Below are positions 32,053 through 60,894 of a stretch of 64,000 bases of DNA, piece after piece. How positions within the stretch are numbered: position 1 is the first letter of the stretch; each line of letters starts with the position of its first letter. Both the position numbers and the translations under genes were made by a program. Origin of the DNA: Dictyostelium discoideum (lineage: Eukaryota); the NCBI GenBank assembly GCA_000004695.1, contig CM000154.2:128001-192000 (forward strand). Reading direction: 5' to 3'. Under the pieces are notes generated by a model that did not search any database, was not told the origin of the DNA, and saw only the letters and a program-made list of their open reading frames with translations.

Positions 32053-32212
32053 CTGTTGTTTCTTTTTGTTTTTTTTATTATTTTTTTATTTTTTTATTTT
32101 TTCATTTTTTTTTCAATTCCCAAAAATAAATTTTTTATGACTTTAAAAAAAAAAAAAAATTTCCTTTTCATCTTCTTTTTTTTTTTTTTAACAATTATCC
32201 AATTTTATTTAT

Positions 32213-32620
32213 TTTTAATATGAATTTAGTATAGATAAATATAAAACTCTAAAATACACAAATCATATTAAAAATAATAAAAAAAAATAAATGTTACCAT
32301 TCTTTTTTTTTTTTTTGAATTTTTTTAACCAATTTAAAATTTTATTCTAAAAATAAACCAAATCAAATCAATTTTTTATTTTTTATTTTTTATTTTTTTT
32401 ATAAAAATCTATTTTTTTATATAAAATTTATTCCCTACTTGTTGTTCAAAATAAAAAAACAATTACAAAAAATGTGTGTTAAAAAATTAAATTTAAGATT
32501 CTAAAAAAAAAAAAAAAAAATTTTATAAAACATAATGATTACATTCATTTTTTTTATATTTTATATCATTTTGTGTATTTTTGAATGTTCTATTTATCTA
32601 TACTAAATTCATATTAAAAA
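32213..32620. mobile_element. MITE-like non-autonomous element: about 55-60-bp terminal inverted repeats flanking about 300 bp of non-coding AT-rich DNA
   Basis: The left end at 32213-32270 is the reverse complement of the right end at 32560-32620; the shared core is cattttgtgtatttttgaatgttctatttatctatactaaattcatattaaaaa. A third copy of the same end sequence occurs at 44445-44525. There is no ORF between the repeats. Possibly related to Dictyostelium thug/DDT-type small elements, but no family assignment is possible without a repeat library. Confidence 0.4.
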
Positions 32621-33055
32621 TAAATAAAATTGAATAATTGTTAAAAAAAAGAAAAACAAATAAAAAAAAAAAAAAAAAAAAAAGAAAAGTAAAATGAAAA
32701 AAAAATGAAAATATTTTTTTTTTTTATTTTTTTTTTTATTTTTTTTTTAATTTGCTCATTTGCAGAAATAAAAAAAAAAAAATATGCGATAATTTTTTTC
32801 ATTAAAAACATTATTAAAAAAAAAAAAGTAAAAATATATATATTTACAATTCTAAACATTTATTATATGTTATTAGAAATACTTAAATATGATGGATCCA
32901 TACGCAACAACTCATAGAAGATTGAAACAGATACAGTTTGTATTTTTAGTAAAAAAAAAAAAAAAAAAAAAAATAGAAAAAATTACAAAATCTATATATT
33001 AACATTTTTATTTTTATTCTTTTTAATTGTTTAAAACTACAATAGGGGTCATTTT

Positions 33056-41844: not shown

Positions 41845-43686
<1,842 letters not shown>

Positions 43687-44097
43687 ATTATAAATGTCTG
43701 TTTTAATGTATCATTACATTTGGAGAAGAAGAAAAAAAAAAAATAAAAAAAAAAAATAAAAAAAATAAAAAAAATAAAAAAATAAAAAATTTCATCGTTG
43801 TGACAAAACATTACCTGTTCAAAAAAAAAAAAAAAATATTTTTTTTTTTTTTTTTTTTTGCGACACAATAAGTTTTCATTTTAAAAAATAAATAAAAAAA
43901 ATATTTTTAAATATCTAAAGATTCTAATCTCTTTTATTAGTTTTTTAAATTTTATTAGATAAACTAACACCAATGGTCAAACAAAATGTTTTTGCTGAAA
44001 TTAATAATGGTTTTTTCAAACTCATTCAGTTTTAACTTCGAATGGTTTAATCTATGGCGCAAAGTTTAGAAATGTTAATGACGATTTTCAAGTGAAA

Positions 44098-44266
44098 CAG
44101 GAATTTGAAAAAAACCACTTCCCAAAGTCGTATCAGGTGGCCAATTTTTATCAAGGAAAGCTGTATCATCAAGTGCCTCCCTCTGTCTCTTGATGATTCA
44201 GCCTTCCTTGACAAAAATTGCCCACCTGATACGACTGGGAAGTTGGTTTTTCAAATTCAATCTGTA
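44098..44266. repeat. Long near-perfect inverted repeat (about 78-bp arms, about 90% identical, 12-nt central spacer) forming a potential 170-nt hairpin, with a second 17-20-bp hairpin at 44285-44355
   Basis: The left arm is caggaatttgaaaaaaaccacttcccaaagtcgtatcaggtggccaatttttatcaaggaaagctgtatcatcaagtg. The reverse complement of the right arm is cagattgaatttgaaaaaccaacttcccagtcgtatcaggtgggcaatttttgtcaaggaaggctgaatcatcaaga. The loop is cctccctctgtc. The downstream perfect palindrome is atatattatatattcac...gtgaatatataatatat. The GC content is high relative to the surrounding intergenic DNA. It lies between the FDXR start at 43686 and the 3' end of the TPP1-like gene at 44540. Confidence 0.7.
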
Positions 44267-44539
44267 GAACAATTTCTTGATTGACGAAAGGCATATATTA
44301 TATATTCACCCAATATTTTGATTCTTCTCTGATCGAGTGAATATATAATATATAAATTTTAAAATAAAAAATATACTCACCCATCAAACCAATTTTTTTA
44401 TTTTTTTTTTTTTTTTTTTTCATATCTATTTTTTTTATTATAAATGTCATTTTTTGTATTTTTGTGTGCTCTATTTATCTATACTAAATTCATATTAAAA
44501 AAAATGAATGTAATCATTCTAGAATTGTTTTTTTATTTT

Positions 44540-44668
44540 TTATTTTTGTGATAAAATATAATTTTCCATATTTGAATATACAATACTACCTAACCCACTT
44601 GCAGGGTCAAAACCAGTTATAGCCTTATAACCAAATTCACAGCAATACATACGATTACAATTATTATT

Positions 44669-44702
<34 letters not shown>

Positions 44703-46823
44703 AAATTATATTTATAATTAGTACTATAATTAGAAATATAAAATATAATATAATAATTACCATTTATAATATCATTAAAAACATTTGGACTTTCTTCAGC
44801 AGCTTGGTATAATAAAGGATTTAAGAAACCTAATGTTGATTTTCCAGAATTTAATAATTTATCATTTATTAATGAAAACATTGCAGCAATTGATGGTGAT
44901 GAGCATGATGTACCATCAACTGATATAGTTATACAAGGGCATAAATTCGATGAAACATTATTAGATTGTACAATTGAGTATTTAGAACCAGCAAGTGAAA
45001 TATCAGGATATGCACGATTTGATGAATTAAAACTGAATGATGGGGGTAATGAGGATGGTTGTTGCTCGAGATACCTATTTACAGCATTAGTTTGATATTG
45101 TGGTTGAGATTGTGTAACTGAAAAACCACCACCAGATGTAATGATTGAACCTGACTGAATTGAACAAACTGATTCAGGTTGTGGTGATTCATAAATTTCA
45201 GTTGCACCTACTGATGTAACATAGGGTGAACTTGCAGGGAATTCTGGGTTGAAGACAGGTCCATTTGATGGATCAAAACTGTATCCAACCATTTTAAAAC
45301 CTTCACCTGATACTGGAGTTAAATCTTCACATAAACATGAAGAATAAATATGTGTATAACCAAACACATCAAACTCATATTGAAAATCACAATGAGCATT
45401 AACTTGTTGGAAAGTACCCAATGCATCAATTACCTCTGGAACAATGATTAATTCTCTACATGCAATACCCATTTGGTTGACTGGATAAAAACAGTTTGGT
45501 GATTCTGTAAAATTTGAATTTACAATTGTAATAGTTGCACAATTGGTAGTTGTGTGCTCACAACCACCAAATGGACAATAACCATTGATACCATCTACTG
45601 GACAATTACCAAACACATCAAAAAATCCAGGGGAACCATCGTCACCTGAACTTACGAATATTGAAGTACCACGTAACCCAATTTTTTGAAATTCAACATT
45701 AGTTCTCTCAATGTAAACCGTAGAATCCACACCAAGATTATTACAATCTTGTGTGATTTCACATTGTTCCATTTCAATCCACCCATAGGAAATCGAAGCT
45801 ACATTTGGAATTGGATCAAATGCTTGAATCGATGTACACCAATCCAATACCCATTCACCACTACCCGATTCAAGAAACATTGTTGTAATATTATTACCAA
45901 TGGCAGTCATATACTGAACATCTAAATCCGATTCAAGTTGTCCACAACCTTGTTCATAACAAAGTGGACTTCCAGCATTTAAAACTCTAACATTTTCAAT
46001 TGAAAATTGTTGATCAAATGTTTCCAATGCACCAGTACTATAATAATCTGAAAAAGCACCTATTGATTGAACATTCTTTGAATTTGTACCAATAGTATCA
46101 TTTGGAATACCATAATAATCTTTCAATACTTGAGGTGAAATTGACAACTGTTTTGAAATACCAACAATATCATCTCTTGATTTTCTCATAGTCTCACTCA
46201 TTTTATTATCTTCAATAAAATCTGATAAACCCAAAACCAAATCAATTTTATTTAAAACATTTATTGGGATTGATGCATCACCAATAATTCTAATTCTTTC
46301 TTTATTTGAAATTTCTGATTTATAAATTCCAAAATTTGTTTTAAATAAATTTGATGCTTTTAAAATATTAATTCTAATTTTAATATAATCTGAAAAAACA
46401 ATCATTTCACTTTTATTAATTTTATTATCAAATAACCAATTTAAAATAATTTCAACATCTTTTTTTGAAGGTGAAATAATTGAATCAATCTCTTTTGAAC
46501 TTAAAAATTTTCCATAATTTAAACTTTTTGGATTTGAAATATCCCAAAATTTTTCTTTTAAAATATTTAAATTATTCTTTTTTTTTTTTTATATATTAGT
46601 ACCTATTTATTTTTTATTTTTTTTTTTTTTAAATAAAACTCACTTGTTTGATTAAAATTTTAAATTCTATTATTTCATTTTCATTTGGTAAACTTTTAAA
46701 ATTAAAGTATGAAGGTGGATTTCTAATATTTGCAATAGTTTCACGTTTTAAACCATCACCACTATTCTCTTTTGCATTTGCAAATAAAATAATAACTAAT
46801 AATATGATTAACTTTAAAATCAT
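44540..46823 (-). CDS. Sedolisin/tripeptidyl-peptidase I-like serine peptidase (MEROPS S53) with signal peptide and pro-domain, about 708 aa, 3 exons
   Basis: Exons complement(46644..46823) (MILKLIILLVIILFANA signal plus start of pro-domain, GTGAGT donor), complement(44761..46576) and complement(44540..44670), with GTAATT donor and aaaaag acceptor. The catalytic-Ser motif SGTSCSSPSIAAMFSLINDKLLNSGKSTLGFLNPLLY corresponds to GTSAAAP...LGFLNPxLY of TPP1. The C-terminal ...CCEFGYKAITGFDPASGLG corresponds to the TPP1 GWDPVTGLG. The pro-domain has the typical KFWDISNPKSLNYGKFLSSKEI pattern. Dictyostelium carries several tpp1 paralogs and I cannot say which this is. Confidence 0.75.
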
Positions 46824-60438: not shown

Positions 60439-60894
60439 AAAACCTTTATAATATTACCTTTTTTTTTAAAAAGGGGAAAAAAGGGGAAATTAGCTTAAAA
60501 AAAATAAGTTAAAATGGGGGCCATTGGTTAAATTGGGGGGGGATTTTAAAGGGAAAATTAAAATTAAAAATTAAAATTAAAATTAAAATTAAAATTAAAA
60601 TTAAAATTATTCAAATTTTTAAAAAGGATAAAAGGATAAACCACCAGTGATCAAATTTTAATTTTGGGAGGGGGGAAAGGTTAATAAATTTTTTAATTAA
60701 TTTTAAAAAATTTTAATTTTTCCTTCTAAAAAGGGTTTTACAGGACCCTTTTGGATTTATTTTAAAAGGGCCGCCGATAAAAAAACCTTCCGTAGTGTTG
60801 CCGTTTTTTTGGTTAGGGCAGTTATTTTATTGATTTTTGCCGCTTTTGGTAATATAGGGTCCATCAAAAAAAGTAAAATTCTTTTGTTAAAAGT

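Follow-up and report, generated by a model that had tools for sequence, protein, structure and literature searches.

The ddi-mir-1176 locus between the fdxr and peptidase S53 genes of Dictyostelium discoideum: hairpin structure, primary transcript and possible origin

Young plant miRNA genes, such as ath-MIR161 and ath-MIR163, are long near-perfect foldbacks, and an origin by inverted duplication has been proposed for them. They share with mir-1176 of Dictyostelium discoideum a long stem with few mismatches, an apparently lineage-specific distribution, and cleavage by a single nuclear Dicer-like enzyme acting with a dsRNA-binding partner; unlike theirs, the arms of mir-1176 yielded no similar parent or target gene in protein searches. 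Transposon-derived miRNAs (the thug-S loci and the MITE-derived miRNAs of plants) also resemble mir-1176 in having a hairpin-forming inverted repeat, and the mir-1176 primary transcript likewise holds a fragment of a transposon terminal inverted repeat (TIR). However, this transcript is transposon-like in its last ~100 nt only, and none of the elements seen has the mir-1176 hairpin as its TIR pair; the hairpin seems to exist in a single copy. The nearest relative in behavior is ddi-mir-1177, the other model miRNA, also on chromosome 5. Both genes are intergenic, with a T-tract promoter, a G start site and a Pol II cap, and both show DrnB/RbdB dependence and a developmental increase. They differ in distribution, with mir-1177 conserved among group 4 dictyostelids and mir-1176 species-specific, and also at the 3' end of the primary transcript: transcription of mir-1177 continues into the gene downstream, whereas the mir-1176 transcript has a discrete non-polyadenylated 3' end.

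The gene ddi-mir-1176, first named mica1190, has been studied by Hinas 2007, Meier 2016, Liao 2018 (PMC6161686), and Edelbroek 2024. Mica1190 was reported as a cloned RNA with a ~22-nt species increasing in development (Hinas 2007). Meier 2016 reported loss of mature miR-1176 from drnB- and rbdB- cells and its over-accumulation in agnA- cells; its maturation needs the Dicer-like DrnB and the dsRNA-binding partner RbdB, both of which gather in nucleolar foci. The abundant strand is miR-1176-5p, which increases during development. Pol II synthesizes the primary transcript, an m7G-capped RNA with no poly(A) tail that builds up in drnB- cells (Liao 2018, PMC6161686). Here we describe a long hairpin found in a 64-kb stretch of DNA (the window, to which all positions below refer) and identify it, with a probability of about 0.97, as this published miRNA gene at NC_007091.3:172131-172231 on D. 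discoideum chromosome 5. The locus is thus already known and characterized in detail, and the hairpin is a correct rediscovery; as a calibration, the first-pass annotation, a reading of raw sequence, had picked out one of the two model Dictyostelium miRNA genes.

Identity of the hairpin

The hairpin is present as first described, in the form of a long imperfect inverted repeat of ~170 nt at 44097-44265. Gapped alignment of the arm 44098-44175 with the reverse complement of 44188-44266 gave 67 identities in 74 aligned columns (90.5%) and 9 gap positions, which bears out the claimed arms of ~78 bp with ~90% identity. An inverted-repeat search returned a gap-free core of two 48-nt arms, 44126-44173 and 44189-44236, that are 92% complementary and 15 nt apart. 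In the minimum-energy RNA fold, 44097-44175 is paired to 44187-44265 around a terminal loop of 11 nt (44176-44186). The loop had been given as 12 nt; it is indeed short, with 11 nt in this fold and, if counted from one gap-free arm to the other, 15 nt (44174-44188). The arms contain bulges and mismatches of the kind usual in RNA precursors. The GC content of the hairpin (0.35-0.45) is well above that of the flanking intergenic DNA (0.11-0.19), again as noted in the first-pass annotation.

Prediction of the RNA fold, proposed there as a check, gave -94.5 kcal/mol for the + strand (z = -14.7), an energy reached by 0 of 200 shuffles. This is the most stable of 2553 sliding 200-nt folds of the + strand across the window, where the runner-up is at -55.9 and the mean is -24.7 with a standard deviation of 9.5. 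The - strand folds slightly better (-103.7 kcal/mol, z = -14.2), and since folding cannot pick the strand, the assignment of the miRNA to the + strand comes from the orientation of the primers and from the published RACE. Other strong 200-nt folds of the window (at 60651 and 14876) were inspected and found unremarkable. A candidate third copy of an arm, direct and upstream (44012-44030 against 44247-44265), was rejected as too weak, its score of 24 being equalled by 5 of 500 shuffles with a mean of 17.4.

The mature sequences published by Meier 2016 and Edelbroek 2024 each have a single exact match in the window, both on the + strand: ddi-miR-1176-5p (CCAAUUUUUAUCAAGGAAAGC), the dominant strand, at 44141-44161, and ddi-miR-1176-3p (CUUCCUUGACAAAAAUUGCCC) at 44203-44223. 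One hairpin carries both, one on each arm, and the duplex they form leaves a 2-nt 3' overhang at either end, the pattern that an RNase III cut produces. Of the 21 positions of miR-1176-5p, 18 are paired in the minimum-energy fold, 16 of them to bases of 3p. The energy amounts to -0.49 kcal/mol per nucleotide (-94.5 kcal/mol over 191 nt), against a canonical miRNA criterion of < -0.2. With its 2-nt overhangs, pairing of at least 60% and this energy, ddi-mir-1176 has the structure asked of a canonical miRNA by the miRBase high-confidence, plant and MirGeneDB criteria. The Edelbroek 2024 supplement records that mir-1176 satisfies each of these three sets, and gives for it a value of 98.5, which we interpret as read precision. 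[quoted passage not shown]

The coordinates lead to the same locus. Edelbroek 2024 places it at NC_007091.3:172131..172231 (+) and draws a structure beginning UAUCAGGUGG. This start is found at 44131, and the published 101-nt hairpin annotation therefore corresponds to 44131-44231; a window offset of exactly 128000 fits the published coordinates, so that the window is NC_007091.3:128001-192000. On comparison with published ddi-mir-1176, the mature sequences, hairpin, start site, T21 run, transcript length, neighbours and coordinates all agree and no sequence difference was found; we see nothing of substance that speaks against the identification. The stem described here is longer than the 101-nt annotation, reaching 44097 and 44265, and continues past the published hairpin for ~34 positions per arm (44097-44140 and 44224-44265).

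A further line of evidence comes from published oligonucleotides. Five primers of Liao 2018 have exact matches in the window, and their order and orientation are those expected: F1025 (43793-43815, +) upstream of the start site, F1026 (43860-43880, +) at the start site, F1023 (44178-44201, +), F1050 (44201-44222, +), and RT1083 (44320-44341, -), which sits on the second stem-loop discussed below. Full-text search of the literature for substrings of the hairpin gave no match in main texts; F1050 (GCCTTCCTTGACAAAAATTGCC) was found in supplementary Table S2 of Liao 2018 (PMC6161686), where it serves for 3' RACE of pri-mir-1176. Three further listed primers (R1031, F964, and F1022) are one base off the window, each time in a homopolymer or C run, and these differences are probably typographical. 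The published stem-loop RT primer RT963 ends in GCTTTC, consistent with miR-1176-5p.

Two database comparisons gave candidates that were rejected. Rfam 15 contains no family for ddi-mir-1176, and its scan of 43000-45500 at permissive E-values returned sub-threshold hits only, namely MIR1319 (37.3 bits against a gathering threshold of 116.6) and mir-31_2 (26.6 against 97), both generic matches to a long hairpin. In the JGI metagenomes the exact 21-mer of miR-1176-5p has one match (L004, 6536-6556; contig Ga0058701_10003014), which we judge to be due to chance because the contig has ~47% GC and unrelated flanks and the collection is very large.

Promoter, primary transcript and processing

The hairpin lies between two protein-coding genes. 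Upstream, on the minus strand and divergent, is a homologue of adrenodoxin reductase (FDXR), as had been annotated, with the bovine structure 1CJC matched at E = 7e-79. The downstream convergent gene is the peptidase S53 gene DDB_G0287357, 100% identical to that of D. discoideum AX4; this identity and the exact primer matches together strongly support the assignment of the window to D. discoideum chromosome 5. Close to the 3' end of DDB_G0287357 lies an intron (44617-44763, minus strand) that is AT-rich, in frame and free of stops, and a mechanically called open reading frame (44540..46405) runs straight through it.

All published landmarks of the transcription unit (T21, G at -281, 669 nt, +243/+248, and +400) map to the exact base. 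Liao 2018 (PMC6161686) described 21 consecutive Ts followed by a G start site, and the window has this T21 run, the published putative promoter motif, at 43839-43859 (+), directly 5' of the start. With the start site 281 nt before the start of 5p and the 3' end at +388, pri-mir-1176 extends from 43860, where F1026 matches, to 44528 (+), which gives the published length of 669 nt for this capped non-polyadenylated RNA. The hairpin begins 237 nt into it. The 3' end is 12 nt short of the stop codon of the convergent DDB_G0287357, and +400 of the published numbering is 44540, the last base of that stop codon. On the other side, the fdxr ATG at 43686 (minus strand) is 174 bp from the miRNA start site, in divergent arrangement. 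According to the literature, Pol II initiates at the G at 43860, just past T21, and transcribes away from fdxr. Between the ATG and the start site there is an A16-TA-T21 homopolymer pair (43821-43859), which resembles a bidirectional promoter core shared by the two genes. Over 43600-44600 a second D. discoideum assembly differs only in the lengths of these tracts, A13/T19 against A16/T21. A scan for bacterial-type promoters and terminators gave counts at shuffle level, such a scan being uninformative for a eukaryote.

The same data bear on the suggestion, made in the first-pass annotation, of a cruciform-forming regulatory element in the fdxr promoter, and on a wider form of it in which the inverted repeat acts as DNA, either as a cruciform or as a protein-binding palindrome. 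In favor of such a role, the repeat is in the intergenic region that the divergent genes share, 412 bp upstream of the ATG of fdxr, but it is also 237 nt within a separately initiated capped transcript, its arms have the bulges and mismatches of an RNA precursor, and D. citrinum and D. firmibasis retain fdxr and its proximal block (43600-43791) without the repeat. Since a separate, divergent, capped transcript suffices to explain the hairpin, we have dropped the cruciform reading, which is hardly credible for this locus.

As to maturation of the miRNA precursor, the start of 5p (44141) is approximately two 21-nt steps from the stem base (~44099), a spacing that would fit sequential dicing from base to loop, the mode reported for mir-1180 and mir-7102. 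The mature miR-1176 would guide an Argonaute to complementary RNA; in the 64 kb of the window there are no sites complementary to miR-1176 besides the opposite arm.

Downstream of the hairpin the transcript contains a second stem-loop (44293-44353, +), made of a perfect 17-bp stem and a 6-bp inner stem. The 17-bp palindrome had already been noticed, at a range (44285-44355) that proved too wide; the arms, separated by a 27-nt spacer, occupy 44293-44309 (ATATATTATATATTCAC) and 44337-44353. Apart from repeats made of homopolymer runs, the window has no other perfect inverted repeat of at least 17 bp with a loop of at most 40 nt. The stem-loop has a fold z-score of -4.2 and is retained in the fold of the entire 669-nt transcript. 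No mention of it was found in the text of Liao 2018 (PMC6161686), where a search for secondary-structure or palindrome wording gave nothing.

This second structure may be related to RNA species observed in the Dicer mutant. In drnB- cells shorter 3' intermediates were detected, and some clones ending at +248 had short oligo(A) tails (Liao 2018, PMC6161686). The published ends of these intermediates, +243 and +248, correspond to 44383 and 44388 (+), and +248 is the last of three templated As (AAA at 44386-44388), as described in that work. They fall 30 and 35 nt past the last perfect base pair of the stem-loop (44353). The structure may block 3'-to-5' trimming, and the 30/35-nt spacing would fit an exosome stalled at it, while the oligo(A) tails at +248 would fit a TRAMP-like activity. 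Participation of TRAMP and the exosome was itself proposed by Liao 2018 (PMC6161686); that the intermediate ends may be tied to the second stem-loop is suggested by the present analysis only.

The locus in D. citrinum and D. firmibasis

We compared the locus with those of D. citrinum and D. firmibasis, whose peptidase orthologues are 86% and 81% identical, respectively. The gene order, peptidase then fdxr, is kept in all three species, with a peptidase-to-fdxr intergenic region of 848 bp in the second D. discoideum assembly (L003), 364 bp in D. citrinum (L002), and 209 bp in D. firmibasis (L001). Only 43600-43791 (the fdxr start and proximal upstream region) and 44533-44596 (the peptidase 3' end) can be aligned to the other two species. 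Their intergenic regions lack the T21 run, the entire primary transcript, the two hairpins and the solo TIR described below, leaving a D. discoideum-specific segment of 741 bp (43792-44532). In the D. citrinum and D. firmibasis spacers, sensitive local alignment found matches of A/T runs only, and folding gave no long hairpin.

Unusually long near-perfect hairpins are regarded in the literature as a sign of young miRNAs. With such a stem, and with no counterpart of the locus in D. citrinum or D. firmibasis, mir-1176 is marked as an evolutionarily young, species-specific miRNA. The absence agrees with the finding of Edelbroek 2024 that mir-1177 alone is conserved among group 4 species. The same authors noted that some miRNAs are gained or lost as whole "modules", and mir-1176 provides a concrete case of the whole-module gain that they described in general terms. 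New here are the absence of the module in two species, its right edge at a solo TIR, and the finding of no protein-coding parent. What the locus still adds is modest: a comparison that documents module gain, a solo TIR at the 3' end of the transcript, and a second stem-loop that had gone unreported.

The solo TIR and the origin of the locus

A copy of the end of a MITE-like element had been reported near the hairpin at 44445-44525; it is real, and somewhat longer than thought. The segment 44431-44530 (+), approximately the last 100 nt of the primary transcript, aligns over ~100 nt with the right TIR (32550-32643) of an AT-rich, MITE-like element of ~481 bp at 32176-32656, whose 87-nt terminal inverted repeats are 93% identical (score 118, shuffles 41.7 +/- 6.2). 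This solo copy begins ~165 nt downstream of the hairpin, inside the primary transcript, and is oriented so that the body of the element would extend toward the hairpin. Its outer terminus (44530) coincides with the right edge (44532) of the species-specific segment. The TIR is all that the locus and the 32176-32656 element have in common, no internal sequence of the element being shared, and alignment found no left partner TIR above shuffles at 43780-44000. Of the transposon-derived cluster that had been envisaged, one TIR copy stands and nothing beyond it. In the accessible part of the published mir-1176 literature the solo TIR is not mentioned.

Two explanations for the birth of the hairpin were weighed, neither of which we favor. 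The first-pass annotation had viewed the hairpin itself as a foldback or solo-TIR MITE, and a broader form of this idea, which concerns the origin of the locus and not its present function, takes the hairpin to be a foldback of two TIRs, or the module to have been brought by such an element, so that the miRNA would be a domesticated transposon hairpin. That D. citrinum and D. firmibasis have no 43792-44532 segment at the syntenic position speaks for it, as does the right edge formed at 44530 by the outer end of a solo TIR whose body side faces the hairpin; moreover, other D. discoideum miRNAs sit in thug-S repeats. For the hairpin itself the idea found no support: no second copy of the arms was seen in the 64 kb or in the compared loci, and there is no target-site duplication at the stem base (flanks ...AGTGAA and AGAACA...). 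In addition, no matching left TIR was found at 43780-44000 and nothing internal to the element is shared; the literature places mir-1176 as intergenic, outside the thug-S repeats that hold multicopy miRNA loci; and AT-rich intergenic DNA diverges so fast that a BLAST miss alone is no proof of insertion. Taken as a whole this explanation seems unlikely, although the pattern of edge and TIR orientation is suggestive, not proven, of a transposon contribution. If an insertion did take place, the solo TIR (44530) would also supply the 3' end region of the transcript (44528), and a module bounded by a transposon terminal repeat hints at how miRNA modules arise, an incremental addition.

The other explanation, that the hairpin was born when a piece of its future target gene was duplicated in inverted orientation, would make the arms decayed coding sequence. 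They are GC-richer than intergenic DNA and open in several reading frames, and newly born miRNAs typically have a long near-perfect stem of this kind. Nevertheless, peptides translated in all frames from both arms had no match at E <= 10 among 5.8 billion proteins, a database that includes the D. discoideum proteome, in a test that has little power with short peptides and would miss non-coding parents; the window, as noted above, has no complementary site other than the opposite arm. We consider this origin improbable, more so than the transposon explanation. A combined proposal, in which mir-1176 was gained by a transposon-associated insertion in the D. discoideum lineage and the second stem-loop is a trimming roadblock, is put forward tentatively; it is possible, and slightly more plausible to us than a domesticated transposon hairpin.

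Finally, D. citrinum and D. firmibasis have in common a 29-nt block, TTTCACGAAAYAATTATGTGTAAARACGA, upstream of fdxr (~8516-8545 of L002 and ~8444-8473 of L001, respectively). It is located just beyond the part alignable to D. discoideum, at the place where D. discoideum has the miRNA promoter instead.
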